Source of the DNA: Methylococcus capsulatus
GTDB lineage: Bacteria > Pseudomonadota > Gammaproteobacteria > Methylococcales > Methylococcaceae
Length of the DNA: 24,000 nt
Reading direction: 5' to 3'
Assembly (NCBI RefSeq): GCF_036864975.1
Contig: NZ_CP104311.1
Location: 2,273,513 to 2,297,512 of the forward strand
The position numbers and the translations under genes were made by a program. Position 1 is the stretch's first letter. Every line of letters begins with the position of its first letter. This document shows positions 2 through 19,124 of the stretch, piece by piece. Under the pieces are notes generated by a model. That model saw only the letters and a list, made by a program, of their open reading frames with translations. It was not told the origin of the DNA and made no database searches.

Positions 2-706
2 GCGATCCGGATCATCGAAGCATTCGCGCCGACCGTTCCAGACCCTTTGGTGCGGGAGGCCATGGAGCTGATGGCCGAGGAGGAACGGCGGCACGAGCGA
101 TTGGTGCGGCACCTGATCGCCCGCTATGGGATCGTGATCGAAGCCAGAGAGATTCCGCCGTTGCCGTCGGATGTCGAACGGACGTTCATCGACTTCGGCT
201 ACGGCGAATGCGTGGATTCCTTCCTGGGGTTCGGCTTCTTCCGTCTCGCGCGGGAGAGCGGATTCCTGCCGCCGGAAATGTTCGACGCTCTGGAAATCCT
301 CATGGGAGAGGAGGTCCGCCATGTGCTGTTCTTCGTCAACTGGATGGCTTGGCACCAGGCACTCCGCGGACGGCGTGCGGCGGCTTCGCGCGGGCTGACC
401 TCGGCATGGCATTACGCCCGTGCGATCGCGGCGCTGGCGGGCGTCGCCGCACGGAATGCCCGCCACCAGGGCAATGGCCGGGAATTTTCGGCGACCCAGG
501 CCGCCGGCCTGATGCCAGGCTTCACGATGGGCGGTCTGCTCGCGGCCTGTCTGGAGGAAAACCGGCGGCGGCTGGACGCCTACGACCGGGATTTGCTGCG
601 CCCGCGCCTATTGCCGGCACTGGCGCGTGTCGCACTGGCGTTTACCGGCAGGGGCGGGCGGCGGAAACGGGGGGACGGCAGGGCGGAGGTTCGATGCGGC
701 AGGTAA
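2..706 (+). CDS. Ferritin-like / di-iron-carboxylate superfamily protein, 5' end outside the window
   Basis: The frame is open from nt 2 (AIRIIEAFAPTVPDPL...), so the GTG at 47 in the ORF track is probably internal. Stop TAA 704-706. Two ExxH motifs (MAEEERRHE and MGEEVRHVLF) lie about 75 aa apart, as in four-helix-bundle di-iron proteins. Third positions are GC-rich. Exact family not recognised. Confidence 0.45.
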   Translation, partial: AIRIIEAFAPTVPDPLVREAMELMAEEERRHERLVRHLIARYGIVIEAREIPPLPSDVERTFIDFGYGECVDSFLGFGFFRLARESGFLPPEMFDALEILMGEEVRHVLFFVNWMAWHQALRGRRAAASRGLTSAWHYARAIAALAGVAARNARHQGNGREFSATQAAGLMPGFTMGGLLAACLEENRRRLDAYDRDLLRPRLLPALARVALAFTGRGGRRKRGDGRAEVRCGR

Positions 707-1332
707 GGAGGGCGCTAGGGCGGTTCGTGGTGATCACAATGATTGCGGCGGCCGCGCTGCCTCTGGGCATGCTAGCATGGCGGGAGCAGGCGGAGCGCGC
801 CGCGGCGCTGGTATCCGGCACGCTGCTGCCGCAGCCGCGCCCCGTCGCCGATTTCGTATTGACCGGTGACGACGGCAGACCATTCACGCGGGCCGATCTG
901 GCCGGCCGCTGGACTGTCGTCTTCGTCGGCTATACCCACTGCCCCGATGTCTGCCCCGCCACACTGTCCCGGCTCAAGGCCGCCAAGGCCAGACTCGGTG
1001 CAGAGGGCGAGCGGCTGGCGGTGCTCTTCGTGTCGGTCGATCCCGAGCGCGATACGCCGGACCATCTGGCGCGCTACGTACGTCATTTCGACCAGGATTT
1101 CCGGGCGGTGACCGGCCCGGTGGATGTGCTGATGGCGTTGGGGCGCGAGCTCGGCTTCGTGTTCGTCAAGAATCTCGGCGCGGAAGGCGAGGGCTATGGC
1201 ATCGATCATTCCGCCGAGCTGATGTTGCTCGATCCGAGGGTCCGTCTGGTTGGCTACCTGATCCCACCTTTCCGGATCGAAGCTCTGGCTGCAGATTTCG
1301 AGACGATACTCAGGAAACGGGTTGCTCCATGA
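694..1332 (+). CDS. SCO1/SenC-family copper chaperone / thiol-disulfide oxidoreductase
   Basis: ATG 694 is preceded by GGAGG (685-689). N-terminal membrane anchor FVVITMIAAAALPLGMLAW. SCO signature FVGYTHCPDVCP (CxxxC) plus the downstream conserved His (GIDHSAEL). Overlaps the upstream gene by 13 nt. The 208-1332 version in the ORF track is an unsupported N-terminal extension. Confidence 0.85.
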   Translation: MRQVRRALGRFVVITMIAAAALPLGMLAWREQAERAAALVSGTLLPQPRPVADFVLTGDDGRPFTRADLAGRWTVVFVGYTHCPDVCPATLSRLKAAKARLGAEGERLAVLFVSVDPERDTPDHLARYVRHFDQDFRAVTGPVDVLMALGRELGFVFVKNLGAEGEGYGIDHSAELMLLDPRVRLVGYLIPPFRIEALAADFETILRKRVAP

Positions 1333-1754
1333 CGAAAGTGCATATTTTCTGCGCAGCCTTGGCTTGGTTCACTCTGCCGGGCCATGCCTGCGAAGGACTG
1401 GAGGTTTCAGCGGCCAGAGTGATGGAATCCCCGCCCGGTGCGAGCGTTCTCGCAGGGTTTGCGACGCTGCGCAACGGTGGGGATGCGCCCCTCGTCATCC
1501 GCCGCGCCGACAGCCCGGATTTCTCGGCGGTGGAATTCCATTCGCTGGTGCAGCGGGACGGGTTGATCCGGATGACGATGGACGGTTCGCTGACCGTGCC
1601 GCCGCATGGTCTGCTCGTCATCGAGTCGGGCAAGCGCCATCTGATGTTGATCAAGCCTGCCAGAGATTTTCACGAAGGCGACTGGATCACCGTTCGCCTG
1701 TTCTGTACGAGCGGGATGCTGGAAGTGAAGATACCGGTCGAGAAGAGCGGCTGA
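1329..1754 (+). CDS. PCuAC-like (DUF461) periplasmic copper chaperone
   Basis: ATG 1329 overlaps the SCO1 stop (ATGA). Signal peptide MTKVHIFCAALAWFTLPGHA. Family-like pattern AGFATLRNGGDAPLVI...SPDFSAVEFH...DGLIRMTM...LTVPPHG...GKRHLMLI. SCO1-PCuAC adjacency is a common synteny. Confidence 0.65.
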   Translation: MTKVHIFCAALAWFTLPGHACEGLEVSAARVMESPPGASVLAGFATLRNGGDAPLVIRRADSPDFSAVEFHSLVQRDGLIRMTMDGSLTVPPHGLLVIESGKRHLMLIKPARDFHEGDWITVRLFCTSGMLEVKIPVEKSG

Positions 1755-1795: not shown

Positions 1796-2581
1796 TCAGC
1801 GGGTCTGTGCTTCCAGAACGGCTAGCCGAACGCGGCTCGAAACTGGACGGCGCATCTGGATGACCACGCCAAGGATCTCGAGCGATTTCAGTTCGGTGCC
1901 CGCAAAGCTGGGAAAATCGGGATGTATCGAGATGAGTTCATAGTCGATCTCGTCCCCGGATTGTGATAGGACGCGGTATCTGTTCAGGTTGAGTCGCTCG
2001 GCACCCGGTCGGAAAACGATCACCGGATCGCTGGGCTGAAGCGGTGCATCCGGGTCGACAACCAATTGATCTCCGGGACGAAACTCGGGCTGGAACGCTT
2101 CGTCGCTCAGCTCCAGCTTGAGGGCGAACAGACGTGGACCGGATTCCGCGAATGGCAGCGAATAGTCCATGGCCACCCATTTGCCTGTCGATGATTGCAC
2201 CGACTGATCCTTGAGGTAAGCCTGTACGAGTTCGCAGTCCCGCGGAGAAAACAGCGGGACGCGACGAGCGCTCGCCATTGACAGAGGCCGTGCGGCATTC
2301 ACGATGCGGGAATGTTCATTTCCGAACAGCAGCGTATCGATATCGATTCCCAATTCCTTGGCGATAAGCGGCAGAAAGGTGCTTTTCCTGATTTTGCCCG
2401 ATTCTAGGCTTTGAATGGTTTGCTGTGCCGCGCCAACCCGTCCTGCCAGCTCATCCTGGCTCATGCCCAGACGTTCGCGGTAATGCCGGACACGCACGCC
2501 TACCGAAGTCAAATTTTCTCCCGATGATTGAATGGCGTTGGGATTCATGCCCAAGGAAGACATCCTCGCTGTTTTTCGCAT
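1796..2581 (-). CDS. XRE-family HTH repressor with C-terminal S24 (LexA/CI)-like domain
   Basis: HTH_3 motif VRHYRERLGMSQDELAGRVGAAQQTIQSLESGK. The C-terminal beta domain resembles the CI/LexA cleavage-dimerisation domain (FRPGDQLVVDPDAPLQPSDPVIVF...ILGVVIQM). Stop TGA 1796-1798. Start uncertain: ATG 2581, 2563 or 2548 are all in frame, and the 2605 track start is TTG. Confidence 0.7.
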   Translation of the reverse strand: MRKTARMSSLGMNPNAIQSSGENLTSVGVRVRHYRERLGMSQDELAGRVGAAQQTIQSLESGKIRKSTFLPLIAKELGIDIDTLLFGNEHSRIVNAARPLSMASARRVPLFSPRDCELVQAYLKDQSVQSSTGKWVAMDYSLPFAESGPRLFALKLELSDEAFQPEFRPGDQLVVDPDAPLQPSDPVIVFRPGAERLNLNRYRVLSQSGDEIDYELISIHPDFPSFAGTELKSLEILGVVIQMRRPVSSRVRLAVLEAQTR

Positions 2582-2611
2582 GCTCGGTGAGCAGATCAAA
2601 AACAAAAAACC

Positions 2612-2620
2612 ATTATAACA
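2612..2620 (-). promoter_or_regulatory. Candidate extended -10 promoter (TGtTATAAT) for the XRE repressor gene
   Basis: The minus strand reads ...actgTGtTATAATgg..., 30-40 nt upstream of the candidate start codons. No convincing -35, which an extended -10 tolerates. Confidence 0.35.
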
Positions 2621-2652
2621 GTAATGCAGGTTCGAGCCGGCCTGCGCTGCAG

Positions 2653-2916
2653 TCAGCGCCGGCCACGTCCGGTCTTGCGGCCTTTGTCCAGAGCGACGTA
2701 AATCGTCCTCCCTTCGAAATCTTGACCGTCCAGCCCTGAAATCGCCGCGCGGGCCTCATGACCTTCCATGTCCACCGTTGCGACGCCTCGCGCCTGTCCT
2801 GTAAATAAATCTCTACTCACCTTCAAGTCGAAGACTTTGCCATAGCCGCCAAACAATTCTCGCAGGTCGGCATCGGTCGTTGAAGGGGGTAAGCCATGCA
2901 CGAAAAGCGTCAACAT
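2653..2916 (-). CDS. Small RNA-binding protein with a single RRM (RNP-1/RNP-2) domain
   Basis: Starts MLTLFVHGLPPSTTDADLRELFGGYGKVFDLKV...ARGVATVDM...GRTIYVALDKGRKTGRGRR, with an RNP-2-like LFVHGL, an RNP-1-like RGVATVDM and a Gly/Arg tail. ATG 2916 is preceded by AGGAG with 9-nt spacing. The 2964 track start adds 16 non-RRM residues. Confidence 0.8.
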   Translation of the reverse strand: MLTLFVHGLPPSTTDADLRELFGGYGKVFDLKVSRDLFTGQARGVATVDMEGHEARAAISGLDGQDFEGRTIYVALDKGRKTGRGRR

Positions 2917-3189
2917 CGGTTCGAACTCCTGACTGAGATTGAAGTTGTGCGGAGAAAAAAGCACCTTCGAGGCAGGGAACGGGTCTGATGGTTTTGATGC
3001 TTGTTTACCACGCTGGCTGGAAGTGTACTGGACAAAATACTTTTTTAATAGTAGAAATTGGTGTCAATCATCGATTCGGCGACTAAGGGTGACGTGGTTC
3101 GTCGAACGCTTGGCTGGGCAGCCGGTGTCTGCCCGCCCCGGCGTTCGCACCGCCTGTTCGCACGGTTCACACAGTGCCTGGAGAATTCA

Positions 3190-4836
3190 TTGGGAAATCC
3201 TGTGTTGCAAACTTTTACCGCGTTGCGCGGCCTCGCCGACAGGAATGCAAGCTGGCGCCAGGATTTCGGTGCCGGCTTGCTGGTCTTTCTGATTGCCCTG
3301 CCTTTGTGTCTGGGCGTGGCCGTGGCTTCGGGATTCCCGCCCATGGCGGGTATTCTTTCGGCGGTGGTCGGCGGGCTGTTGGTGTCCCGTATCAATGGTT
3401 CCTACCTCACCATCACGGGTCCGGCCGCCGGTTTGATCGTGGTGATCCTCGGTGCCGTGCAATCGCTGGGTCAGGGCGACGCCATGGCCGGTTACCGCTA
3501 CACCCTGGCGGCCATCGTTGTATCCGGCGTGCTGCAAATCCTGTTGGGCCTTTACAAGGCCGGACGCCTGTCCGCCTACTTTCCCGCCTCGGTGGTCCAC
3601 GGCATGCTGGCCGCCATCGGCATCATCATCATGGCCAAACAGATCCCGGTGATGGCGGGCGTCAAAATCGAACCCGGTACCCACGCCAGCCTGTTGTCCA
3701 GCATGGCCCAGCTGCCTCATGGGCTCGCCTATTTCATCCCGGAAACGACCTTCATCGCCCTGGTGGGGCTGGCCATCCTGATCGCCTGGCCACGGCTCGA
3801 AAACCGCTTCCTCAGCAAAGTCCCGGCGCCCATCGTCGTCATTTTGTCCGGCATGGCCCTAGGGCAGGTTTTCGACCTGGCCCAGCTTCGCCCCGGTGAA
3901 AGCTTCCTGGTTCCCAAGGACTTGATCGTCGGCCCCGCTTTTCTGGTTGCGATTCCCGACAGCCTGCTGGCGAGCCTTTACCTGCCCGATTTCTCCAAGG
4001 TCTTCACGCTGGCGTTTTGGCAAAGCGTGATCAGCATCTGTCTGGTGGGCAGCCTGGAGAGCCTGCTAAGCGCAGCGGCGGTGGACAAGCTGGACCCCGA
4101 GCAGCGCTATTCCGACCTGAACCGAGACCTTCGCGCGGTGGGCATTGGCAACGTCGTCGCGGGGCTGATCGGCGGTCTGCCGATGATCGCCGAAATCGTG
4201 CGCAGCTCCGCCAACATCGACGCCGGTGCCCGAACCGCTTGGTCGAATTTTTTTCACGGCGCGTTTTTGCTGCTGTTCGTGTGGGCGTTTCCGCACGTGA
4301 TCGACACGATCCCTTTGGCCTCCCTGGCCGCGCTGCTGGTCTACACCGGTTTCCGCCTGGCCTCGCCCGAGGCCTTCGCCAGGACTATGGATCTGGGCCG
4401 GGAACAGCTGGCGCTGTTCGTCATCACCATCGTCGGTGTGCTGGCCACCAACCTCCTCGCGGGCGTGTTGATCGGCATCGCCGCCAAACTGCTCCTTCAT
4501 GTCGGGCGAGGCGTTCCCCTCAGGAATCTGCTGACCATTTTCTACCGGATCGAGCACCCAGCCCCCGGTACCTGTATCATCCATGTACGCGGTTCGGCGA
4601 TCTTCTCCAATTTCCTCGCCCTCAAGAGCGCCTTGGCGGAGCTGCCGGCCGGCAAAACGATCCTGTTCGACCTGTCCGACGTCTATCTGATCGACCATAC
4701 GGTGATGGAATTCATCGATCATTTCCGCGACGATGTCATCGCACAGGGCGGACGCTGCGAAATTCGTGGACTGGCCGGCCACGAGCCCTACGGCGAACAC
4801 GAGCTGGCGGCCCGCATCAAAACGCCGCAGAATTAA
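3190..4836 (+). CDS. SulP-family inorganic anion transporter with C-terminal STAS domain
   Basis: Multi-TM SulP core (GFPPMAGILSAVVGGLLV, LTITGPAAGLIVVILG, HGMLAAIGIIIMAKQ). STAS domain (IIHVRGSAIFSNFLALKSAL...ILFDLSDVYLIDHTVMEFIDHF). There is no in-frame ATG before TM1. I place the start at TTG 3190 (GGAGA 3180-3184), but GTG 3202 is equally possible. The 3058-3189 extension has visibly lower GC3 and no SulP-like sequence. Confidence 0.85.
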   Translation: MGNPVLQTFTALRGLADRNASWRQDFGAGLLVFLIALPLCLGVAVASGFPPMAGILSAVVGGLLVSRINGSYLTITGPAAGLIVVILGAVQSLGQGDAMAGYRYTLAAIVVSGVLQILLGLYKAGRLSAYFPASVVHGMLAAIGIIIMAKQIPVMAGVKIEPGTHASLLSSMAQLPHGLAYFIPETTFIALVGLAILIAWPRLENRFLSKVPAPIVVILSGMALGQVFDLAQLRPGESFLVPKDLIVGPAFLVAIPDSLLASLYLPDFSKVFTLAFWQSVISICLVGSLESLLSAAAVDKLDPEQRYSDLNRDLRAVGIGNVVAGLIGGLPMIAEIVRSSANIDAGARTAWSNFFHGAFLLLFVWAFPHVIDTIPLASLAALLVYTGFRLASPEAFARTMDLGREQLALFVITIVGVLATNLLAGVLIGIAAKLLLHVGRGVPLRNLLTIFYRIEHPAPGTCIIHVRGSAIFSNFLALKSALAELPAGKTILFDLSDVYLIDHTVMEFIDHFRDDVIAQGGRCEIRGLAGHEPYGEHELAARIKTPQN

Positions 4837-4856
4837 CCTCAGTCTCAGGAGCCGAG

Positions 4857-6971
4857 ATGCCGTTGTTTTTTGCTTACCTGTCGGTGATCGCCGCGCTGAC
4901 GTCGGCACTCCTCGCGCTGGCCACCAACCGCCGCGCCGGGTTGCAGCGTCTGGCGGAAGCGCTCGGGCGCCACGGGCTGCAAGCGCCGCCGGCGGTGGCC
5001 AGAATCCTTTCCGAAACGCATTTTGTCCGCATCCACCGCTACAGCCTGTTCGCCCTGCTGGGGATTTCCGGCGTCAGCGCCGTCCTGGCCGGGTTGGGCG
5101 CGCTCTCGAGCGGTGCCGTGCGCACCGATACCCTGCCGTTCGGACTGCCCTGGCTCAGCTGGCATGTCCGTATCGATCCCTTGTCCGGCTTCTTCTTCTG
5201 CGTCCTGGGCCTGCCGCTCGTCGCCGTCAGTCTTTACGGACCCAGCTACGTTCGGGAGTTCGAACACGGCAAGCACTCCCTGTCGGCCTTGGGGCTGTTC
5301 ACCGGGCTGTTCGTGGCCGGCATGGAGCTGGTCCTTTTGGCCGACGATGCGTTTTTGTTCATGATCGCCTGGGAGGTGATGTCGGTGGCCAGCTATTTCC
5401 TGGTCGCCTACCAGCACGATCATGCCGCAAACCGCCGCGCCGCTTTCCTTTACCTGCTGATGGCCGAAATCGGCGCGATCGCCATCATCTTAGGCTTTGG
5501 CGTGCTGGCGGGTTTCGGCGGGGGATTGAGTTTCGAGGCCTTGCGTGGGGCATCGTTGAGCCCGCTGTGGGCCAGCATCGCCTTCGTGCTCGGACTCGTC
5601 GGTTTCGGGATGAAGGCCGGCCTCGTTCCGATTCATGCCTGGCTGCCGGAAGCCCATCCCGTCGCGCCGTCCCATATTTCGGCGTTGATGAGCGGCGTGA
5701 TGTTGAAGATCGCCGTCTACGGCTTCATCCGCTTCACGTTCGACCTGCTGGATCAAATCCTCTGGCAATGGGGCGTGTTGGTGCTGATCATCGGTTCCGC
5801 ATCCGCCGTGCTCGGCATCCTCTACGCCCTGCAACAACAAAACCTCAAGCGGCTGTTGGCCTATTCCTCGGTGGAGAACATCGGCATCGTCTTCGTGGCG
5901 CTGGGATTGGCGCTGATCTTTCTGAGCAGCGGACAAACCCACCTGGGCACGCTCGGTCTGGTGGCTGCGCTGCTGCACTCGCTCCATCACGCCCTGTTCA
6001 AGTCTTTGCTGTTTCTCGGCGCCGGCGCCATCCTGCATCAGACCCACGAACAAAGCCTGGAAAACATGGGCGGCTTGGTCCATCGCATGCCCAAGCTGGC
6101 GGCGGTTTTTCTGGTCGGCACCCTGAGCATCGCGGCACTTCCGCCACTGAACGGGTTCGTTTCCGAATGGTTGATCTTCCAGACCGCGTTGCAGGCCAGC
6201 GCCATCGAGAGCGGCGTGCTGCGTAGCCTGATTCCCACCGCCAGCGCCGTACTGGCGCTGACGTCGGCCCTGGCGGCCACGTGTTTCGTCAAGGTCTACG
6301 GCGTGGCCTTCCTGGGATTGCCGCGATCGCATCACATCGCCCATGCCCGTGAGGTCCAGCATCGCGGCATGCTCGGCGGTCCCGTATTGCTGGCCGCCTG
6401 CTGCGTGCTGCTCGGCGTGCTGCCAACCCCGCTCATCAACGGTCTGGCGGGTTTGACGCGACAATTGACCGGCTTCGAGCTTCCCCACGTTTCCGCTTTG
6501 GGTTGGTTGTGGTTGACGCCGGTGTCGCCCGAGGTGGCGTCCTATTCGCCTGCCTTGGTGCTGGTGGGGGCTATGGCGGTCGGGTGGCTTTGCTATTACC
6601 TGCTGTATCGCCGCACCGGTTTGGATCCACGCCGGGCCGAACCCTGGGACTGCGGCTTCGGCGGTCTGACGGCACGCATGCAATACACCTCGGGGGCCTT
6701 CAGCATGCCGATCCGGCGTATCTTTCAACCCGTGTTCGAACTGCGCGAGACCCTCGAGGAACACAAGGAAGGCCCCGCCCAGGCGCGCGTCACGGCGCTG
6801 CGCTATCAATTCCACGTCCTGGATCGTGCCTGGTTGAGCCTGTATCAGCCGTCGGGCCGTGTCGTCACGAAGCTGGCGCGCGGGGCCGGCCGTTTGCAGA
6901 CCGGCAATATCCGCACCTATCTGGGTTATTCCTTCTTTACCTTGCTCTTTCTGTTGTGGGTGATCAGTTGA
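4857..6971 (+). CDS. HyfB/HycC-like (NuoL-type) antiporter-like membrane subunit
   Basis: ATG 4857 with AGGAG at 4847-4851, 20 nt after the sulP stop. Proton-antiporter family blocks are present (MIAWEVMSVASYFLV, GMKAGLVPIHAWLPEAHPVAPSHISALMSGVMLKIAVYG). The HycC/HyfB-type C-terminal region is present (EPWDCGFGG..MQYTSGAFSMPIRRIF). The 4017 track start is an out-of-context extension into sulP. Confidence 0.9.
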   Translation: MPLFFAYLSVIAALTSALLALATNRRAGLQRLAEALGRHGLQAPPAVARILSETHFVRIHRYSLFALLGISGVSAVLAGLGALSSGAVRTDTLPFGLPWLSWHVRIDPLSGFFFCVLGLPLVAVSLYGPSYVREFEHGKHSLSALGLFTGLFVAGMELVLLADDAFLFMIAWEVMSVASYFLVAYQHDHAANRRAAFLYLLMAEIGAIAIILGFGVLAGFGGGLSFEALRGASLSPLWASIAFVLGLVGFGMKAGLVPIHAWLPEAHPVAPSHISALMSGVMLKIAVYGFIRFTFDLLDQILWQWGVLVLIIGSASAVLGILYALQQQNLKRLLAYSSVENIGIVFVALGLALIFLSSGQTHLGTLGLVAALLHSLHHALFKSLLFLGAGAILHQTHEQSLENMGGLVHRMPKLAAVFLVGTLSIAALPPLNGFVSEWLIFQTALQASAIESGVLRSLIPTASAVLALTSALAATCFVKVYGVAFLGLPRSHHIAHAREVQHRGMLGGPVLLAACCVLLGVLPTPLINGLAGLTRQLTGFELPHVSALGWLWLTPVSPEVASYSPALVLVGAMAVGWLCYYLLYRRTGLDPRRAEPWDCGFGGLTARMQYTSGAFSMPIRRIFQPVFELRETLEEHKEGPAQARVTALRYQFHVLDRAWLSLYQPSGRVVTKLARGAGRLQTGNIRTYLGYSFFTLLFLLWVIS

Positions 6972-7915
6972 TGGTCTGGCTCCTGGCGATCGTGCAAACC
7001 CTGCTTTTCATCGGCGCGGCTCCCTTGCTGGCCGGCTGGACCAAACGGATCAAGTGCCGTCTGCAAAACCGCAAGGCACCCTCCCTGTTCCAGCCCTACC
7101 GCGACCTGTTCAAGCTGTACTGCAAGCAGCCCATCGTTCCGCAGCCGGCCTCGTGGATTTTCCGCGCCGCCCCTTACATCGTGTTCGCCTCGACCGTGCT
7201 GGCCGCTTCCACCGTGCCCTTGGTGGCGGTCGATCTGCCCACGGCGCGCATCGCCGACGTCATCGTGCTGGTGGGTTTCTTTGCCTTGGGACGGACCTTC
7301 CAGGTGCTGGCCGGCATGGACATCGGCACGGCCTTCGGCGGAATGGGCTCGTCGCGGGAAATGACCATTTCCTCGCTGGCCGAACCGGCGATGCTGATGG
7401 CGGTGTTCACCCTGGCCATGAGCGCCCACACCACCAACCTGTCGCAGGCCATGAACTATGTGCTCGACACCGGCCTGGTGCTGCGCCCCTCTTTCGTCTT
7501 CGCCCTGGGCGGTTTGATGCTGGTGGCGATCGCCGAGACCGGGCGGATACCGGTGGACAACCCCGCGACCCATCTGGAGCTGACCATGATCCATGAAGCC
7601 ATGATCCTGGAGTACAGCGGCCGCTGGCTGGCGCTCATCGAATGGGCCAGTCAGATCAAGCTGATGCTCTACGGTGTCCTCATCGCCAATATCTTCGTCC
7701 CCTGGGGGATCGCGCAGGCGCCGTCCCTGCCCATGCTCGGCTACGGGATCGCGGCGATCGCGCTGAAGCTCGCGGTTCTGGCGCTGCTGCTGGCCCTTTC
7801 GGAGGCCCTGTTCGCCAAGATGCGGATCTTCCGCGTGCAGGAATATCTTGGCTTTGCCTATCTGCTCAGTGTCCTGGGGATGTTGAGCCACATCATCCTG
7901 GAGGCGGCGCGCTGA
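6971..7915 (+). CDS. HycD/HyfC-like (NuoH-type) membrane subunit
   Basis: ATG 6971 shares its A with the upstream TGA (6969-6971). Clear similarity to E. coli HycD as I remember it (LLFIGAAPLLAGWTKRIKCRLQNRKAPSLFQPYRDLFKL; SSREMTISSLAEP; IPVDNPATHLEL..EAMILEYSG). Confidence 0.9.
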   Translation: MVWLLAIVQTLLFIGAAPLLAGWTKRIKCRLQNRKAPSLFQPYRDLFKLYCKQPIVPQPASWIFRAAPYIVFASTVLAASTVPLVAVDLPTARIADVIVLVGFFALGRTFQVLAGMDIGTAFGGMGSSREMTISSLAEPAMLMAVFTLAMSAHTTNLSQAMNYVLDTGLVLRPSFVFALGGLMLVAIAETGRIPVDNPATHLELTMIHEAMILEYSGRWLALIEWASQIKLMLYGVLIANIFVPWGIAQAPSLPMLGYGIAAIALKLAVLALLLALSEALFAKMRIFRVQEYLGFAYLLSVLGMLSHIILEAAR

Positions 7916-8592
7916 TGGCCATTACCGAACTAACCCTCTATCAACAGGCGATCCTGCTTTTGGCAGGATTGATCGCCCTGACCTCCTTCCTGATGCTGGG
8001 GCAATCGCGGCTGGTGCGTCTGGTCCTCGTGTTCGCCCTCCAGGGCCTGCTGCTGGCGGCGGCCACCGCACTGGCGGCCTCGGTGCTGGATTATCCCCAC
8101 TTGTACGTCTCGGCGGCCCTGAGCCTGTTGTTGAAAGGCATCGTCATTCCGGTCCTGCTGCAACGCCTGATCCACCGCATGGGGCTGCATCGGGTCATGG
8201 ACACCATCGACCACCCGGCGCGGGTGATGATGGCCGGAACGGCTTTGGTGGTGTTCAGTTATTACGTCAGCCTGCCGGTCGTCCAGCATTCCACCCTGGT
8301 CACGCTCAACGCCATCGCGGTCAGCCTCGCGGTGGTGCTGCTCGGCATGCTGCTGATGATCACCCGCCGCCAGGCGGTGGCCCACGTGGTCGGGTTCATG
8401 TCGATCGAGAACGGTCTGTTCTTTGCCGCCGTGGTCTCCACTTACGGCATGCCCATGGTGGTGGAACTGGGTGTGGCTTTCGACGTGCTGGTCGCCGCCG
8501 TGGTGTTCGGCGTGTTCTTCTTCCAGATCCGCTCCAGCATCGACTCCCTCAACGTAGACCAGCTCAGCAAGCTGACCGAGGCCGATCGATGA
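7915..8592 (+). CDS. HyfE-like small membrane subunit (NuoK-related)
   Basis: ATG 7915 shares its A with the upstream TGA (7913-7915). 225 aa, all-helical and hydrophobic, with the HyfE-like block GFMSIENGLFFAAV. Confidence 0.8.
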   Translation: MAITELTLYQQAILLLAGLIALTSFLMLGQSRLVRLVLVFALQGLLLAAATALAASVLDYPHLYVSAALSLLLKGIVIPVLLQRLIHRMGLHRVMDTIDHPARVMMAGTALVVFSYYVSLPVVQHSTLVTLNAIAVSLAVVLLGMLLMITRRQAVAHVVGFMSIENGLFFAAVVSTYGMPMVVELGVAFDVLVAAVVFGVFFFQIRSSIDSLNVDQLSKLTEADR

Positions 8593-10055
8593 TTGCGGTT
8601 TATCTCCTGCTTCTGGTCCCGCTCGCCGGCATGGCGCTGTTGAGCTTCCACGGACACCGTGCCGATGCCGGGCGGCTCAACGTCCGCTTCAATGCCTTGG
8701 CGTTGGCCGCCTCCGTGTGGCTGGCCATCGACGTGCTGATCAACGGTCCTGAACTCTCGGCGGGGCGGCTGCTGTACATCGATTCCTACAACGTCTACCT
8801 GGTGGCCCTGACCGCCTTCGTCGGCCTGACCACCTCGATGTTCTCCGGCCCTTACATGGCACACGAACAGGAGATCGGCCGGGTCACGGCGCGCCGGCTG
8901 CGTCTCTACTACGCCATGTACCAGGGTTTCATGCTGGCGATGTATCTGGTGCTCACGACCAACAACATGGGGGTCATGTGGGTGGCCATGGAGGGGGCGA
9001 CGCTCGCTACTGTGCTGCTGGTGAGCCTTTACCGCACCCCCGAATCGGTGGAAGCCGCCTGGAAGTATTTCATCCTGTGCGGCGTGGGTATCGCCCAGGC
9101 TCTGTTCGGCACCGTGCTGTTGTACTTCGCCGCCGAACAAAAATTGGGCGTGGGCGGCGAGGCGCTGTTGTGGACGGTGCTGCACGACAACGCCCACGCC
9201 CTCGATCCCGCCATCTTGAGCCTGGCTTTCGTATTTCTGCTGGTGGGCTACGGTACCAAGATCGGTCTGGTGCCCCTGCATCAATGGCTGCCCGACGCCC
9301 ACTCGGAAGGCCCCACCCCGATGTCCGCGATCCTCTCGGGGCTTTTGCTCAACGACGCGCTCTATGCGGTGGTACGCTGCAAGATGCTGGTGGATGGCTC
9401 GCTCGGAACCCATCTGGCTGGCAACCTGATGATGGGCTTCGGACTGCTGTCCTTCCTGGTCGCGGCCTTGTTCCTGCACCGCCAGACCGATATCAAACGG
9501 CTGTTCAGCTATTCCTCCATCGAACACATGGGGTTGATGACCTTCGCCTTCGGTGTGGGCAGTCCCTGGGCCACCTTCGCCGCGTTGTTCCACATGACCA
9601 CCCACTCCCTGACCAAGTCGGCCATCTTCGTCACCGTGGGGCATGCCGCTCAGTTGGCCGGCACCCAGCGCATGGACAAGATCCGCGGGCTCATCCTGAC
9701 CCAGCCCACTATAGGCTGGGGCCTACTGATCGGCACGGTGGCCATCGCCGGATTCCCGCCCTTCGGGGTGTTCGCCAGCGAGTTCCTGGTTTTGGTCGCC
9801 ACGATGGATGATTTCCCCTGGCTGACCCCCCTCTTGCTGCTGGGGATAGGACTGGCCTTCGCCGGGCTGTTCCGCCATATCCAGCCCATGGTGTACGGCG
9901 ACGTGCCGGAAGGGCAAAAAGCCATCACTGCCAATCTGTGGCCGGTCTTCATGCACCTCGCCCTGGTGCTGTGGCTGGGCCTGGCCATCCCCGGTTTTCT
10001 GGGAAATTGGTTCAGCCAGGCGACGCAACTGATTGCCGGGAGTTTGCCGCAATGA
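8589..10055 (+). CDS. HyfF-like (NuoN/NuoM-type) antiporter-like membrane subunit
   Basis: ATG 8589 overlaps the upstream stop (ATGA). Antiporter family blocks are present (WVAMEGATLATVLLV, GTKIGLVPLHQWLPDAHSEGPTPMSAILSG, LFSYSSIEHMG). Confidence 0.9.
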   Translation: MIAVYLLLLVPLAGMALLSFHGHRADAGRLNVRFNALALAASVWLAIDVLINGPELSAGRLLYIDSYNVYLVALTAFVGLTTSMFSGPYMAHEQEIGRVTARRLRLYYAMYQGFMLAMYLVLTTNNMGVMWVAMEGATLATVLLVSLYRTPESVEAAWKYFILCGVGIAQALFGTVLLYFAAEQKLGVGGEALLWTVLHDNAHALDPAILSLAFVFLLVGYGTKIGLVPLHQWLPDAHSEGPTPMSAILSGLLLNDALYAVVRCKMLVDGSLGTHLAGNLMMGFGLLSFLVAALFLHRQTDIKRLFSYSSIEHMGLMTFAFGVGSPWATFAALFHMTTHSLTKSAIFVTVGHAAQLAGTQRMDKIRGLILTQPTIGWGLLIGTVAIAGFPPFGVFASEFLVLVATMDDFPWLTPLLLLGIGLAFAGLFRHIQPMVYGDVPEGQKAITANLWPVFMHLALVLWLGLAIPGFLGNWFSQATQLIAGSLPQ

Positions 10056-11635
10056 GCGTTGACAGCTTGACTTCACTGCGGTTGAAGCTGGCGGCCCAGG
10101 ACATCGACAACGTTTCGTCGGTCCATCGTTTCCTGTCGCCCGCAATGGTGTTGCAGCTCGACGCCCGAGATTGGGGCAAAGCTGCCGAAATCACCAAGTC
10201 CGAACATTGGCGCTGGGCCGGCATCTGGGCCGAGGACCGAGGCGCCGAGCTGGTCGTCAATGCCTGTTTGGAACACCAGGGAAGTTATCTGATCCTGCGG
10301 ACCCTCCTGACGCCGGAGCGGGCGATCCTGCCGTCGCAGGCCCCGCACTACTGGGCCGCGGATCGGCCGGAACGCCACATCCGCGACCTGTTCGGCATCC
10401 ATTTCGAGGGCCATCCCGACCCGCGCCGCTGGATCCGACATCAGGCTTGGGACGAAAACGTATTCCCGCTGCGCAAACACTTCGCGGCGGCCGGCACCCC
10501 TCCCGGCGAGACCCCGCCAGACCGGGACTACCCTTTTCTGAAGGCGGAAGGCGCCAGCGTCTACGAAATCCCGGTGGGGCCGGTTCATGCCGGCATCATC
10601 GAACCGGGCCATTTCCGCTTTCAAGCCGTGGGTGAAACGGTCCTGCATCTGGAGGAAAGGCTGGGCTACGTGCACAAGGGCATCGAGAAGCTCGCCGAGG
10701 GCCGTGACCCGGCCGGCCTGGCGCGGCTGGCCGGGCGGGTGTCCGGCGACACCACGGTGGGCCACACCTGGGCCGCCTGCATGGCCATGGAACGCGCCGC
10801 CGGAATCGAAATCCCCTTGCGCGCGGCGTATCTGCGCGGATTGCTGGCGGAACGGGAACGGGTCATCAATCATCTGTGGGATTTGGGTGCTTTGTGCAAT
10901 GACGTGGGCTTCGCCTTCGGCCATTACCAGTTCGGCCGTTTGCGGGAACAGTGGCTGCGGGAAAATCAGCTCCATTTTGGCCATCGCCTGCTCATGGACC
11001 GGATCGTGCCGGGCGGGGTCGCCGTCGACCTCGGCCCCGACGCAGCGGGGACCATGGGTCGGTCCATAGCGGCCTTGCGGGGCGAACTCGACGAGCTGTT
11101 GACGATCCTCGATTCCAATTCATCCCTGGAAGACCGCTTTCTCGGCGCCGGCGTTCTCTCCACCGAGCTGGCGGCGGCCCTGGGTGCGCTGGGTTTCGTG
11201 GGCCGGTCCAGCGGCCAGACCTTCGACGTGCGCCGCGATGCGCCTTACGCCCCTTATGACCGGTTGACGTTCAACGTGCCGACGGAGAGTCAGGGAGACG
11301 TGGCTTCGCGGTTCTGGGTACGCTACAAGGAATTGCGGGTCGGCCTCCGCCTGCTCGAGGCATTGCTCGAAGGCCTGCCCGAAGGCATGGTGGCAGTACC
11401 CTGGCAGATTCCCCCCGAGGGCGCGGAAGGCTTCGCGGCGGTCGAGGGCTGGCGTGGCGAAATCCTCTGCTACGTGCGCTTCGGCGCGGGCAACGCGATC
11501 GCCCGCTACTGGCCGCGCGATCCCAGTATCGTCAACTGGCCGGCGCTGGAGAAACTGGTGCTCGGCAACATCGTGCCCGACTTCCCGGTGTGCAACAAAT
11601 CGGTGAACGGCTCCTATTCCGGCCACGACCTTTGA
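10052..11635 (+). CDS. Group-4-hydrogenase 'large subunit' homologue (NuoC-NuoD-like fusion) lacking NiFe cysteine ligands
   Basis: ATG 10052 overlaps the upstream stop (ATGA). N-terminal NuoC-like domain (RPERHIRDLFGIHFEGHPDPRRW). NuoD/HycE-like domain (IPVGPVHAGIIEPGHFRF...LGYVHKGIEKLAE). The usual RxCGxCxxxH position reads RVSGDTTVGH. The C-terminus reads DFPVCNKSVNGSYSGHDL-stop instead of DPCxxCxxH/R. Confidence 0.9.
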   Translation: MSVDSLTSLRLKLAAQDIDNVSSVHRFLSPAMVLQLDARDWGKAAEITKSEHWRWAGIWAEDRGAELVVNACLEHQGSYLILRTLLTPERAILPSQAPHYWAADRPERHIRDLFGIHFEGHPDPRRWIRHQAWDENVFPLRKHFAAAGTPPGETPPDRDYPFLKAEGASVYEIPVGPVHAGIIEPGHFRFQAVGETVLHLEERLGYVHKGIEKLAEGRDPAGLARLAGRVSGDTTVGHTWAACMAMERAAGIEIPLRAAYLRGLLAERERVINHLWDLGALCNDVGFAFGHYQFGRLREQWLRENQLHFGHRLLMDRIVPGGVAVDLGPDAAGTMGRSIAALRGELDELLTILDSNSSLEDRFLGAGVLSTELAAALGALGFVGRSSGQTFDVRRDAPYAPYDRLTFNVPTESQGDVASRFWVRYKELRVGLRLLEALLEGLPEGMVAVPWQIPPEGAEGFAAVEGWRGEILCYVRFGAGNAIARYWPRDPSIVNWPALEKLVLGNIVPDFPVCNKSVNGSYSGHDL

Positions 11636-11647
11636 CGAGGGCTTTTT

Positions 11648-12187
11648 ATGCTGCGACTGTACAGCAAGATCTTCAAAACCGGCGTTCTCACCGAGAAAGT
11701 GCCCAAGCCGCCCAGTCCCGGGATCGGCGTTGCCGAGCGAGAGGAGGCGATCGAGCAAGTCGGCCGGGCGCTCAAGGGGATCGTCGACAAACGGTTTCGC
11801 GGCAGTCTCGCCATCCGTCAGGTGGATGCCGGCTCCTGCAACGGCTGCGAGCTGGAGATCCATGCGCTCAACAACGTCTATTACGACGTCGAACGCTTCG
11901 GGGTGCATTTCGTGGCATCGCCGCGCCATGCCGACGTGCTGCTGGTGACGGGGCCGGTTTCCCGCCACATGGAAGCCGCCCTGAAGCGCACCTACGAAGC
12001 CACGCCCGACCCCAAATGGGTGATCGCCGTGGGCGATTGCGGCGCCTGCGGCGGCGAGTTCGGCGTGTCTTACGCCAGCTGCGGCGCAGTGAGCAACGTG
12101 ATCCCCGTCGATCTCGCCATCCCGGGCTGCCCGCCGTCCCCCCTCGCACTGTTGCAGGGCCTGCTGTCGCTGTGCGGGAGGCAGTAA
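11648..12187 (+). CDS. HycG/HyfI-like (NuoB-type) small subunit with [4Fe-4S] cysteines retained
   Basis: GAGGG RBS before ATG 11648. NuoB/HycG signatures are present: VDAGSCNGCELEI, ASPRHADVLLVTGPVS, GDCGACGG, IPGCPPSP. All four cluster Cys positions are therefore present. Confidence 0.9.
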   Translation: MLRLYSKIFKTGVLTEKVPKPPSPGIGVAEREEAIEQVGRALKGIVDKRFRGSLAIRQVDAGSCNGCELEIHALNNVYYDVERFGVHFVASPRHADVLLVTGPVSRHMEAALKRTYEATPDPKWVIAVGDCGACGGEFGVSYASCGAVSNVIPVDLAIPGCPPSPLALLQGLLSLCGRQ

Positions 12188-12315: not shown

Positions 12316-14163
12316 CTAAGTTCGGCTCTGCGCCGCTGCGCGTTCGCGGAAGACCTGGATGCGCCCATCGAAGCCCTCCAGCCAGGCCAACTGCGCTTCA
12401 AGCCGCCGGATCCGGGAGCCAGCCTGGTCCGAGGCCCGGGAGCGTTCCGCGGCACCCCGAGTCAATGCCTGTTCCAAGCCATCCGCCACGCCCTCCAGAC
12501 GCTGGCGTAGGCGGGCCGACAGCTCCTCCCTCGTTTCTTCCAGGCGTCGCCGGATGCCGCTGCGGATGCGTCCGGTCAGCATTTCCATTGTCTCGGTCAA
12601 CTGGCGCCTGCGTCGCCGGACGATACCGTGCCGGGCCCAGCGCTCGGCCAGGGATTTGAGCTTTCGGAAGCGCGGCGCGACCAGTTCCGGCGCCCGCTTC
12701 AAGACCTGCTCCGTGAGCAGCTCCAGCCCCATGGGTTCGTCCGTGGGACGGACCCCGGCGCGGGTTCGTTCCGGCCAGCTCGTCTGCAAAGCAGCGGTCG
12801 GCACGGCAAGCTGGAACAGACCGCCGGCAAAGCGCTGGAGGTCGGTGACCATTTCGTCGATTTCGAGGTCGAAGGTTCGGACAATCTCCGCGGCCGCCGC
12901 ATCGGCTTGGCGCTCCAATACCTCCCGCCAGTCGGCGAAGGATTCTGCGACCTCTTCCCGGATGAAGGTTTCCAGGCACTCGTCGAAATCTTTCGGAGGC
13001 TGGAGGTCGTGGTCGAGGACCAGAGCATCGAATCTCCGGGCCAGGTGCGAACGTAGCTCTTCGAACCGGCGTTCGGGGTCACGCGCGAAAATCCCGTCGG
13101 CCAGCAGATGGAATTCCTGCCGCAGACGTCCGTCGAGCCGCCGCAGTTCACGCTCCGCCTGAAACCGGCGGGCAGCAAACCGGGCGATCTTTTCGTCCAA
13201 CTCTGCTATCGGGAGGGTCAGGGAACTTCGCTCCAGCCGGGTTTCCAGGCGCAACCGACCGGTTAGGCGCGCGAGGCCGGAAGCCGCGGCATCGAGCAGC
13301 AGCGCACCTTTTTCCTCCAGTAAAAAGCGTTCGAGCGCCGCAGTGAAGACCGGCAGGCGGCTCGCGTCGAGCCGTGCCGGATCGTTGCCGGCTTTTCCCA
13401 TCAGCGCATCCCGGGCGGAAATGGGGAAGAGGCGGACCTCCGTACCCACTGCCTGGGTCAGGACACGGCGGGAGAAGTGCTCGATCGCGGCGATGTCGGC
13501 TTCCTGCAGGATGTCGATCTTATTCAACAGAAAAAAGATACGGCCGGCGTACTTCCGGACCTCATTGAGGAATTCCAGTTCGGCCTGGCTCACCGCCTGA
13601 TCGGCGGAGAGGACGAACAGAGCCGCATCGCAATGCGGCAGCCGGGCATAGGCGGTGTCGGTGTTGTGACGGAAAACCGAGCCGACCCCTGGGGTGTCGA
13701 CGATGCGCACGCCGTTCCTCAGGAGGGGCGAGGGCATCTGGATCAGCACCTCCCGCACGCCCTTCGCGTTGCCCGGATTACCCGGCTCGGTGATGTAATC
13801 CGCGAGCGTCTCCGGGTGGATGTCGAAGGGGCGGCCTTCCAGCGGCTGGACGGTGATCCGGTGCGTCTCGCCGTATATGAGGATGGTCACCACCGAGGTC
13901 AGCGGCACTGCCGCCGTGGGCAGCAGGTTTTCACCCAGTAGTGCGTTGATCAGGCTGGTCTTGCCGCGCTTGAACTGTCCCACCGTCAGGACGTCGAAAT
14001 ACCCCTCCTGCACCTTGTCACGAAGGGCGAGGGCGGGGCGCACAGCCGCAGGAAGGTTCTCGGCCAGCTCGTCGATCCGGTCCAAGAGCTCGGATTTGAG
14101 ATCCGCGTAGCCGGCGGCTTGCGGCGCGTCACCGGCGACACCGGAACGGGGAATGGCGTTCAT
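12316..14163 (-). CDS. Dynamin-family large GTPase (bacterial dynamin-like protein)
   Basis: G1 GQFKRGKTSLINALLG, G3 VRIVDTPGVGS, G4 FFLLNKIDIL, followed by about 350 aa of R/E/L-rich helical stalk. I place the start at ATG 14163, which overlaps the DUF4242 stop (ATGA). The 14313 track start would run 150 nt into the upstream gene. Confidence 0.85.
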   Translation of the reverse strand: MNAIPRSGVAGDAPQAAGYADLKSELLDRIDELAENLPAAVRPALALRDKVQEGYFDVLTVGQFKRGKTSLINALLGENLLPTAAVPLTSVVTILIYGETHRITVQPLEGRPFDIHPETLADYITEPGNPGNAKGVREVLIQMPSPLLRNGVRIVDTPGVGSVFRHNTDTAYARLPHCDAALFVLSADQAVSQAELEFLNEVRKYAGRIFFLLNKIDILQEADIAAIEHFSRRVLTQAVGTEVRLFPISARDALMGKAGNDPARLDASRLPVFTAALERFLLEEKGALLLDAAASGLARLTGRLRLETRLERSSLTLPIAELDEKIARFAARRFQAERELRRLDGRLRQEFHLLADGIFARDPERRFEELRSHLARRFDALVLDHDLQPPKDFDECLETFIREEVAESFADWREVLERQADAAAAEIVRTFDLEIDEMVTDLQRFAGGLFQLAVPTAALQTSWPERTRAGVRPTDEPMGLELLTEQVLKRAPELVAPRFRKLKSLAERWARHGIVRRRRRQLTETMEMLTGRIRSGIRRRLEETREELSARLRQRLEGVADGLEQALTRGAAERSRASDQAGSRIRRLEAQLAWLEGFDGRIQVFRERAAAQSRT

Positions 14164-14432
14164 TCTGCCGTGGTGGGATCGATGACGGTACGGACTTCGT
14201 TGATCGCGTCGGCGGGAAAGCCGCCTTCCATCGCATGCTGCCTCAACGTGGCGGCGTCCGGGGCGATGTAGATGCAGTACACCTTGTCGTCGGTGACATA
14301 GCTTTCGAGCCATTGAACCTGCGGTCCCATGGCGTTGAGGATGGAACAGGATTTCCGGGAAATCCGCTGCAACTCATCACGTGAAAGGTTTCCAGCGCCG
14401 GGAATCGTACGCTCTATGACATATTTGGGCAT
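14160..14432 (-). CDS. DUF4242 (SCO4226-like) small ferredoxin-fold protein
   Basis: The 90-aa sequence MPKYVIERTIPGAGNLSRDELQRISRKSCSILNAMGPQVQWLESYVTDDKVYCIYIAPD...GFPADAINEVRTVIDP matches my memory of the DUF4242 family pattern. A perfect AGGAGG lies 6 nt before ATG 14432. Confidence 0.75.
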   Translation of the reverse strand: MPKYVIERTIPGAGNLSRDELQRISRKSCSILNAMGPQVQWLESYVTDDKVYCIYIAPDAATLRQHAMEGGFPADAINEVRTVIDPTTAE

Positions 14433-14773: not shown

Positions 14774-14793
14774 ACAACCTCGTTGGAGGTTGT
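14774..14793 (+). other. Perfect 8-bp stem / 4-nt loop hairpin at the predicted 5' end of the mmoX mRNA
   Basis: ACAACCTC-gttg-GAGGTTGT (14774-14781 / 14786-14793). It begins about 12-14 nt after the -12 element, at or next to the expected transcription start. Confidence 0.5.
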
Positions 14794-14864
14794 ATGTCCG
14801 GTGTCCACTGACGTCATCGGGCATTCCGACTCAAAGAAAGAATGTGTTACGGAGGAAACGAGTA

Positions 14865-16448: not shown

Positions 16449-16458
16449 AACGAGCGTT

Positions 16459-16482
16459 GGGCTCCGTCGCAGAACGGGGCCC
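16459..16482 (+). other. GC-rich stem-loop in the mmoX-mmoY spacer
   Basis: GGGCTCCG-tcgcagaa-CGGGGCCC: an 8-bp stem with one mismatch and no U-tract, starting 11 nt after the mmoX stop. Confidence 0.4.
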
Positions 16483-16526
16483 GACACACAATCGTTCGAT
16501 CAACATCAAACTAAAGGAACATCGAT

Positions 16527-17696: not shown

Positions 17697-17707
17697 GAGT
17701 TATCACG

Positions 17708-18133
17708 ATGAGCGTAAGCAGCAACGCGTACGATGCCGGCATCATGAGCCTGAAAGGCAAGGAGTTCGCCGATCAGTTCTTTGCCGAAGAAAATCAGGTG
17801 GTCCACGAAAGCGACACGGTCGTTCTGGTCCTCAAGAAGTCGGACGAGATCAATACCTTTATCGAGGAGATTCTTCTGACGGACTACAAGAAGAACGTCA
17901 ATCCGACGGTGAACGTGGAGGACCGCGCCGGCTACTGGTGGATCAAGGCCAACGGCAAGATCGAGGTCGATTGCGACGAGCTGACCGAGCTTTTGGGCCG
18001 TCCTTACAACGTCTATGACTTCCTCGTCGACGTTTCCTCGACCATCGGCCGGGCCTATACCCTGGGCAACAAGTTCACCATTACCAGTGAGCTGATGGGC
18101 CTGGACCGCAAGCTCGAAGACTACCACGAATAA
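17708..18133 (+). CDS. mmoB: Soluble methane monooxygenase regulatory protein B
   Basis: 141 aa, [25 protein letters not shown]...[13 protein letters not shown], recognised as MmoB. TAGGAG RBS. The 17495 track start lies inside mmoY. Confidence 0.97.
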
Positions 18134-18143
18134 GGAGACCGAC

Positions 18144-18647: not shown

Positions 18648-18710
18648 CGGGAGGAAGTCTCGCCCTGGACTCCGACGGCATCGCCGTGAGGTCAGGGGGC
18701 AGGGATGCCG

Positions 18711-18747
18711 TTCCGGGCCGGTCTGCCGGCCCGGAATCTTTGGTTTT
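18711..18747 (+). terminator. Intrinsic (rho-independent) terminator or attenuator inside the mmo operon, between mmoZ and mmoD
   Basis: Perfect 11-bp GC-rich stem TTCCGGGCCGG-tctg-CCGGCCCGGAA (18711-18736), followed by TCTTTGGTTTT (18737-18747). Oriented for the + strand: the opposite side has no T-tract. Confidence 0.7.
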
Positions 18748-19112: not shown

Positions 19113-19124
19113 ACAGGTAAGTTT

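Follow-up and report, generated by a model that had tools for sequence, protein, structure and literature searches.

The stretch of Methylococcus capsulatus DNA analysed here spans 24,000 nucleotides (nt) (contig NZ_CP104311.1, positions 2,273,513 to 2,297,512; hereafter the window) and raises a question of gene arrangement. Why does a gene for an anion transporter of the SulP/SLC26 family (sulP) lie directly upstream of six genes for an Ehr complex, a relative of hydrogenase-4 and complex I (Table 1)? Ehr complexes have been known for about two decades, but we know of no function assigned to them. An earlier note on this DNA, made from the sequence alone, had proposed that the seven genes form one transcription unit, that the transporter is genetically attached to the complex and that the two might jointly carry out energised anion uptake. 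We put the probability of a real functional link at roughly 0.5. In the form we favour, the SulP protein would be an anion:cation symporter that is co-expressed with a redox-linked cation translocator.

Organization of the seven-gene unit

On re-reading the sequence, all gene coordinates and junctions given in the earlier note (a 20-nt spacer, four overlaps and a 12-nt gap) proved correct. The overlaps are TGATG at 6969-6973 and 7913-7917 and ATGA at 8589-8592 and 10052-10055, and the gap between the large- and small-subunit genes occupies positions 11636-11647. At the junction of sulP and the hyfB-like gene (hereafter hyfB), we found no terminator-like and no promoter-like site, including sites for sigma-70. 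Folding of the junction RNA showed no advantage over shuffled sequence (z = 0.44), in agreement with the earlier observation that a hairpin and a T-tract are absent. Rfam gave no match at gathering thresholds anywhere in the window, nor at E ≤ 1 over positions 2500-5000, and we therefore rejected a riboswitch or another known RNA element, whether before sulP or in the junction.

The region is syntenic with M. geothermalis, in which the spacer between sulP and hyfB is 24 nt long. Methylococcus sp. EFPC2 also has the sulP-Ehr block, with a 13-nt spacer and in a different genomic neighbourhood, suggesting that the block moves as a unit. On the downstream side, a gene encoding a dynamin-like GTPase is convergent with the unit, which therefore should end at the small-subunit gene. 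The close spacing, the lack of a terminator between sulP and hyfB and the conservation of the block in relatives make it probable that the seven genes (3190-12187) are one co-transcribed unit, as had been proposed.

The start of sulP is annotated inconsistently: one NCBI annotation uses TTG at 3190 (548 amino acids; aa) and another uses GTG at 3202 (544 aa). The TTG has a GGAG sequence 6 nt upstream, and M. geothermalis shows ATG at this position.

The Ehr module

Judged from their sequences, the six genes downstream of sulP are a typical proteobacterial Ehr operon. The HyfB-like protein matches Proton_antipo_M (3.4e-61) and scores 823 bits with the NCBIfam model for hydrogenase 4 subunit B (cutoff 667). 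The HyfF-like protein is a second Proton_antipo_M protein and scores 785 bits with the model for subunit F (cutoff 543). Both antiporter-like subunits keep the Glu and Lys residues of transmembrane helices 5, 7 and 12; E173, K253 and K382 are invariant in 64 of 64 HyfB homologues, and E135, K224 and K343 in 78 of 78 HyfF homologues. In the HyfC-like protein (Pfam NADHdh, 1.9e-37), D196, E203 and E209 are invariant in all 74 sequences. The HyfE-like protein has no Pfam match and lies below the cutoff of the NCBIfam model for the hydrogenase 4 membrane subunit (2.4e-21), and its gene has the same position across all related operons.

The large subunit, a match to WP_198323382, consists of Complex1_30kDa and Complex1_49kDa domains with an N-terminal NiFeSe_Hases fragment. 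Its nearest solved structure is E. coli HycE (7z0s_E, 5.8e-65), and the structure search with this subunit found no solved Ehr structure. The motif RVSGD replaces the RxCGxC of hydrogenases, and NGSYSGHDL replaces ELCYxCxDR. Because the Ni-Fe ligands are absent, the large subunit is predicted not to be a hydrogenase. The two cysteine motifs are also missing across the 84 homologues compared. Among 100 distant representatives that were aligned, the majority are likewise cysteine-less, and the true hydrogenases listed there retain the cysteines. The site that lacks the ligands is well conserved, with R229 and D233 invariant in 84 of 84 loci and S231, N515, K516, S517, Y522 and D526 present in 81 to 83 of the 84. 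In the small subunit (Oxidored_q6, 3e-31), C64, C67, C131 and C161 are invariant in 72 of 72 sequences.

The window thus encodes a NuoD-type large subunit without CxxC motifs, a NuoB-like Fe-S subunit and NuoH- and antiporter-like subunits, which are the four hallmarks of Ehr. Since the Fe-S ligands, channel residues and polar-site residues are invariant or nearly so, the module looks like a working Fe-S ion translocator with a conserved polar site in place of Ni-Fe. The family matches, the missing cysteines and the invariant residues all bear out the original description of a cysteine-less ion-translocating module of the Ehr/Hyf type. The unit contains none of the NuoEFG and NuoI genes that form the NADH-input module of complex I.

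In the literature, the Ehr family is described as cysteine-less and its function as unassigned (PMC6349859, PMC10284858, PMC7735108). A cluster in Methylocystis labelled "group 4f", which has an AARVS motif, is induced 16- to 23-fold at pH 5, and no H2 was detected (10.1101/2025.08.29.672306). Going by this motif, the cluster is probably a cysteine-less Ehr whose label needs correcting, and its induction at pH 5 points to ion or pH homeostasis.

Many Ehr loci (L016, L018, L019, L020, L038, L042, L052, L063 and others; L numbers denote our loci) have a gene of about 85-105 aa on the same strand directly upstream of hyfB. This gene is missing from the window. It may be a seventh Ehr gene and may account for the count of seven given in the Methylocystis preprint.

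The SulP protein

The product of sulP is 100% identical to WP_198323386 from Methylococcus. It has both parts that define SulP/SLC26 proteins, namely a Sulfate_transp membrane domain (6.8e-57, 193 bits) and a C-terminal STAS domain, the latter short and weak (24.8 bits versus a cutoff of 22.6). Its nearest solved structures are SLC26Dg (5da0) and BicA (6ki1). The protein lies under the NCBIfam cutoffs for DauA, sulP (TIGR00815) and BicA, the last by a wide margin (119.8 bits versus 880), and we therefore rejected the assignment of a substrate from family models.

Recurrence of SulP genes beside Ehr operons

The earlier note had proposed a survey of gene neighbourhoods, which we conducted with an alignment of diverse cysteine-less large subunits as the query. 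We fetched 80 genomic loci with 10-kb flanks; these are the best 80 of at least 596 matches, with one genome per species, so that frequencies derived from them are rough. The census sample comprised 84 related Ehr loci (1.42 Mb). Flanking genes were identified by self-trained gene calls and Pfam, and SulP genes by a hidden Markov model scan of all six-frame open reading frames (ORFs).

Nearly all of some 80 loci, which belong to Gamma-, Beta- and Alphaproteobacteria and Nitrospirota, share the gene order hyfB-C-E-F-large-small, and the flanks are highly variable. Against this variable background, we found 14 SulP genes in 11 of the 84 loci. All are on the strand of the Ehr operon, and in 10 of the 11 loci they are at most two genes from it; only in Methylomonas sp. 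AM2-LC is SulP farther out. Counted by gene rank, 12 of the 260 genes near the operons encode SulP, compared with 1 of the 376 genes farther away (odds ratio 18; Fisher p = 1.5e-4, which is only a guide since related loci are not independent). Among nearest upstream neighbours, Sulfate_transp shares first place (7 of 61) with a small HTH_3 (XRE-type) protein, and among second neighbours it is again the commonest family (4 of 126). Downstream of the Ehr operons in the census, there was no recurrent family.

The adjacency is not confined to one lineage. The order sulP-Ehr occurs in Methylococcus, Methylothermaceae (L010), Thiobacillus (L032) and another betaproteobacterium (L076), and a tandem version, sulP-sulP-Ehr, in Methylobacter-like genomes (L009, L021, L022). 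A CNNM/CorC gene stands between sulP and Ehr in Muproteobacteria (L012). The transporter gene can also be downstream: Ehr-sulP in Burkholderiaceae (L043) and a betaproteobacterium (L069), and Ehr-DabBA-sulP in AM2-LC (L004, 4810-18926), where DabB and DabA are on the minus strand and sulP is divergent from them. In a tree of Ehr large subunits, the SulP-linked loci occupy at least six separate positions in gamma- and betaproteobacterial clades. In two metagenome-assembled loci, L069 (11905-13764) and L021 (2913-4497), the sulP next to Ehr is split into two ORFs, reflecting either a sequencing frameshift or a pseudogene.

The linked transporters belong to three subfamilies. One is a divergent Methylococcales type with at least 58% mutual identity. 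The second is a TIGR00815 type that is over the cutoff of that model and 22-23% identical to the window protein, and the third is a DauA-like type with 27-28% identity to it. Viewed from the transporter side, hyfB is directly downstream of SulP in 9 of 30 metagenomic loci carrying the window's SulP subfamily, or about one third. Tandem SulP pairs, which fall into two sister clades, occur in L009, L021, L022, L107, L116, L118, L108, L110 and L111; some are followed by Ehr, but those in L108, L110 and L111 are not. The neighbours of SulP loci without Ehr gave no clue to the substrate.

From this distribution, and as far as sequence comparison can tell, Ehr is a known, self-contained module without SulP among its core parts, and SulP is an accessory that has been recruited repeatedly. 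Neither the pairing of SulP with Ehr nor the sigma-54 cluster treated next was described in the literature we searched; the earlier note, too, knew of no characterised system with such an architecture.

Sigma-54 sites and two-component genes

A histidine kinase (orthologues about 50% identical) and an NtrC-type sigma-54 regulator (67-72%) recur in two settings. In the first, both genes directly follow a paralogous SulP gene of M. capsulatus (L086, 8001-12657), and the kinase gene directly follows SulP in L113 and L123. In the second, kinase and regulator genes directly follow the Ehr operon (L022, L011, L007). The full cluster in L022 (931-15916) reads sulP-sulP-Ehr (six genes)-DUF2490-kinase-regulator. 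Thus, in Methylobacter-type genomes, Ehr and DUF2490 are nested inside a module of SulP, kinase and NtrC-type regulator. DUF2490 is given as a family of putative outer-membrane pores in PMC4827864; in L109, a DUF2490 gene comes after a lone SulP gene. The two-component system could not be named, since its proteins are under every NCBIfam equivalog cutoff and score as generic AtoS/AtoC- and NtrC-like proteins.

Sigma-54 -24/-12 sites (TGGCAC-N5-TyGCT) are found about 45-100 nt upstream of the SulP start in 12 of 20 SulP loci; the background frequency is 0.042 per 260 nt. The match before sulP in L010 is perfect. In the loci with such sites, none lies between sulP and hyfB, and the Methylobacter-type cluster has its sole recognisable sigma-54 promoter in front of sulP; this arrangement would be expected if a single sigma-54 promoter served both sulP and Ehr in these genomes.

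Sigma-54 control of Ehr operons in general was considered and rejected, as a site lies at most 250 nt from hyfB in only 4 of 64 loci, with about 2.7 expected. The window has no sigma-54 site before sulP or hyfB, and matches across the window are at chance level. We also rejected the helix-turn-helix (HTH) protein encoded at 1796-2605 as a conserved Ehr regulator, since a homologue is near Ehr only in M. geothermalis.

A chemiosmotic link as the favoured reading

In the reading we favour, the Ehr complex would be a redox-linked translocator of H+ or Na+, and SulP an accessory anion:cation symporter made together with it. Anion uptake would draw on, or charge-balance, the ion circuit driven by Ehr. 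The coupling would be chemiosmotic and would not require a fixed physical complex.

Several observations argue for this reading. One is the arrangement itself: junctions are tight and without a terminator, adjacency is always on the same strand, it recurs at six or more tree positions, and it involves three subfamilies of transporter. Others are the conservation of the sulP-Ehr block in relatives and of the functional residues of the module, the kinase and sigma-54 regulator genes that SulP and Ehr loci share, the sigma-54 sites before sulP, and the hyfB genes directly downstream of 9 of 30 metagenomic SulP genes. A further one is the induction at pH 5 of the presumed Ehr cluster of Methylocystis.

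The leading candidates for the anion are sulfate and bicarbonate. A SulP paralogue of M. capsulatus (66-69% identical; L086/L087, 3112-9698) is near genes for PAPS reductase, a CysQ-like phosphatase, a LysR regulator and glutamate-cysteine ligase; these sulfate-assimilation neighbours hint at sulfate uptake. The linked TIGR00815-type transporters, which pass the "sulfate permease" model, also count toward sulfate. The case for bicarbonate is taken up below.

Alternative explanations

Several observations weigh against a functional link, and some of them are what would be expected if sulP and Ehr were merely neighbours. On this account, a rearrangement joined the genes, perhaps with read-through, and the products have separate jobs, one in ordinary anion uptake and the other in respiration or ion pumping. 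SulP is absent from about 85% of the 84 Ehr loci and was found in 0 of 29 loci of a mainly alphaproteobacterial clade. The pairing is labile: it is missing from Methylocaldum, Methylospira and L006, and Methyloterricola and Methylomagnum are further relatives in which this junction is missing. Conversely, orthologous SulP genes stand without Ehr in Methylomagnum, Methyloterricola, Methylomonas and a metagenome locus, L097. This last locus has the HTH-RRM-sulP trio of the window (HTH and RRM genes at 4535-5709) with no Ehr behind it, suggesting that sulP has a promoter region of its own. Moreover, the SulP clade that includes the window, M. geothermalis, EFPC2, L094, L095 and L097 has neither a sigma-54 site nor two-component genes nearby, and the Ehr operon has no NuoI/HycF-like subunit. 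The kinship among the surveyed loci and the roughness of their frequencies belong on the same side of the balance.

For these reasons, the earlier wording that the transporter is "genetically attached" is too strong, given that Ehr is mostly alone and close relatives do not have the junction. The adjacency beyond chance does stand. It is this recurrence, at six or more places in the tree of Ehr large subunits, involving three subfamilies of SulP and always adjacent on the same strand, that is hard to reconcile with mere neighbours, as is the nesting of Ehr between sulP and its cognate kinase and regulator genes in Methylobacter-type loci. We therefore consider an arrangement without shared function unlikely, while taking it seriously.

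A second alternative is that SulP imports bicarbonate, as BicA does, and that Ehr energises this import; the system would then be a third complex-I-derived carbon pump beside DAB and NDH-1/Cup. DabB-DabA genes adjoin, in divergent orientation, a SulP gene of the window's subfamily in AM2-LC and apparently also in the metagenome locus L112, whose SulP gene has a sigma-54 site. In AM2-LC, Ehr flanks the other side of DabBA, so that three ion- or anion-handling systems (Ehr, the DabB-DabA inorganic-carbon pump and SulP) stand side by side. A gene for beta-carbonic anhydrase adjoins Ehr in L018, and the hyf genes of A. caldus are reported to lie next to one and near carbon-fixation genes (PMC3826726). 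In addition, SulP-linked loci belong to lineages of methanotrophs and lithoautotrophs, with none in the mainly alphaproteobacterial clade. Yet DabA or beta-carbonic anhydrase is near Ehr in only 2 of the 84 loci (one each), which counts against a specific role in bicarbonate transport, and the 25 top neighbour families listed include no RuBisCO or carboxysome family. The low score with the BicA model, the inclusion of "sulfate permease" and DauA-like types among the linked transporters, and the sulfate-assimilation context of the paralogue also speak against it. Inorganic-carbon uptake thus appears distinctly improbable. Of the anion-uptake hypothesis in the earlier note, the bicarbonate part proved thin, while a functional link of some kind is likely.

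A stricter version of that hypothesis is that SulP and Ehr form one machine for anion uptake driven by redox energy or an ion gradient, possibly with the STAS domain docking on the complex. We regard this as a rather doubtful proposition. If it were true, NDH-1/Cup and DAB would be joined by a third kind of solute pump derived from complex I. The orphan Ehr family would thereby gain a first physiological role, and the cluster with sigma-54 sites, two-component genes and DUF2490 would be the inducible regulon of the machine.

Alternatively, SulP could deliver a substrate, importing an anion (formate, fumarate or a sulfur oxyanion, for example) for oxidation or reduction at the polar site that replaces Ni-Fe. 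This site is not degenerate, as the invariant R229 and D233 and the six nearly invariant residues indicate. There are also parallels in the transporter gene focB of the E. coli hyf operon and in the polysulfide reduction by Pyrococcus MBS. At pH 5, formate dehydrogenases were induced together with the Methylocystis cluster (10.1101/2025.08.29.672306), and a pairing of formate dehydrogenase with Ehr was proposed earlier (PMC6349859). On the other hand, there is no known chemistry at the polar site, three divergent SulP subfamilies would need to carry the same substrate, and no formate dehydrogenase or sulfur-enzyme family is among the 25 top neighbour families listed. We consider substrate delivery very unlikely.

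Finally, a true formate hydrogenlyase or hydrogenase-4, as suggested by the annotation of six genes (MCA1137-1142) in the M. capsulatus Bath genome paper (PMC517821) and by the NCBIfam calls for HyfB and HyfF, is extremely improbable, because the large subunit has none of the four Ni-Fe cysteines, the 24 window proteins scanned include no HyfA, HyfH, FdhF or Hyp maturation protein, and HydDB places the catalytic subunit of A. ferrooxidans hyfBCEFGI among non-hydrogenases (PMC7735108). We take MCA1137-1142 to be the equivalents of the window's Ehr genes, in which case the formate hydrogenlyase label likely does not fit and needs correcting.

Comparison with known systems

The module most closely resembles other Ehr systems (Geobacter Ehr, A. 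ferrooxidans hyfBCEFGI and Nitrospira EhrL), with which it shares a cysteine-less large subunit of the group-4 type and NuoB-, NuoH- and antiporter-like subunits. The window differs from them in having the SulP gene 20 nt upstream as a seventh gene. E. coli hydrogenase-4 (hyfABCDEFGHIJR-focB) has homologues of HyfB, C, E, F, G and I in the same order, but the window has no Ni-Fe site, HyfA, HyfD, HyfH, formate dehydrogenase or maturation genes. The E. coli hyf operon ends with focB, a formate channel gene. Both operons therefore contain a transporter gene, but focB is of the FocA type and last in its operon, whereas the transporter gene in the window is a SulP and first.

Like the DAB and cyanobacterial NDH-1/CupA systems, the window genetically ties an antiporter-like subunit of the complex-I type to putative uptake of an inorganic anion. 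Unlike these systems, it encodes no DabA (PF10070) or CupA/ChpX among the proteins scanned, its partner is a complete secondary carrier and not a vectorial carbonic anhydrase, and its Ehr has the full NuoB/CD/H core. The SulP protein itself shares the Sulfate_transp core and STAS domain of BicA, SLC26Dg and DauA, although its STAS domain is short and weak and its scores are under every NCBIfam equivalog cutoff.

MBS of Pyrococcus is another relative of group 4 hydrogenases that is cysteine-poor, having lost the Ni-Fe ligands and kept ion translocation; it reduces polysulfide. It is built of 13 subunits, among them a NuoI-like subunit and those of an Mrp module, and is not known to have a linked transporter. 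MBS/Mbx is only distantly related to the window's large subunit (6u8y_L, 7.7e-28).

Neighbouring genes

Upstream of the unit, SCO1/SenC and PCuAC genes form a copper-chaperone pair, which is of interest in a copper-regulated methanotroph. Downstream, a complete soluble methane monooxygenase operon starts 2.6 kb past the Ehr unit. It is followed by a 106-aa ORF and the GroEL-like mmoG gene, extending to 22206 on the plus strand, and this layout is identical in M. geothermalis. Past mmoG, where mmo regulatory genes would be expected, there is a response regulator gene with HDOD, receiver and GGDEF domains (22239-23879, minus strand).

Table 1 Features of the window
Feature	Positions	Strand	Remarks
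SCO1/SenC	208-1332	+	Copper-chaperone pair with PCuAC
PCuAC	1329-1754	+	Copper-chaperone pair with SCO1/SenC
HTH_3 protein	1796-2605	-	269 aa; divergent from sulP
RRM-domain protein	2653-2964	-	Divergent from sulP
sulP	3190-4836	+	SulP/SLC26-family anion transporter; 548 aa from TTG 3190, 544 aa if GTG 3202
sulP-hyfB spacer	4837-4856	+	20 nt, CCTCAGTCTCAGGAGCCGAG; ribosome-binding site AGGAG 4847-4851; sulP TAA 4834-4836
hyfB-like	4857-6971	+	Antiporter-like (NuoL/M/N family) membrane subunit; 704 aa, ATG start
hyfC-like	6971-7915	+	NuoH-type membrane subunit; 314 aa; start overlaps hyfB stop
hyfE-like	7915-8592	+	Small membrane subunit; 225 aa
hyfF-like	8589-10055	+	Antiporter-like membrane subunit; 488 aa
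Ehr large subunit	10052-11635	+	NuoC-NuoD/HycE-like fusion without Ni-Fe cysteine ligands; 527 aa
Ehr small subunit	11648-12187	+	NuoB/HycG-like, one [4Fe-4S] site; 179 aa
Bacterial dynamin-like GTPase (Dynamin_N)	12316-14313	-	Convergent with Ehr unit
Small SCO4226-like protein	14160-14432	-	Between Ehr unit and mmoX
mmoXYBZDC	14790-20171	+	Soluble methane monooxygenase operon, complete

Significance

Ehr complexes are widespread, occurring in Proteobacteria, Nitrospirota and many candidate phyla, and are often mislabelled as hydrogenase-4 or formate hydrogenlyase. The repeated and independently evolved link to SulP, together with the link, in some genomes, to a sigma-54 two-component system and a putative outer-membrane pore, provides the first concrete experimental handles on this family. 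Methylococcus capsulatus is genetically tractable and is used industrially. If the coupling is real, it would represent a new way to energise secondary transport, and it would matter for how methanotrophs and sulfur oxidisers maintain sulfur, carbon or pH homeostasis.

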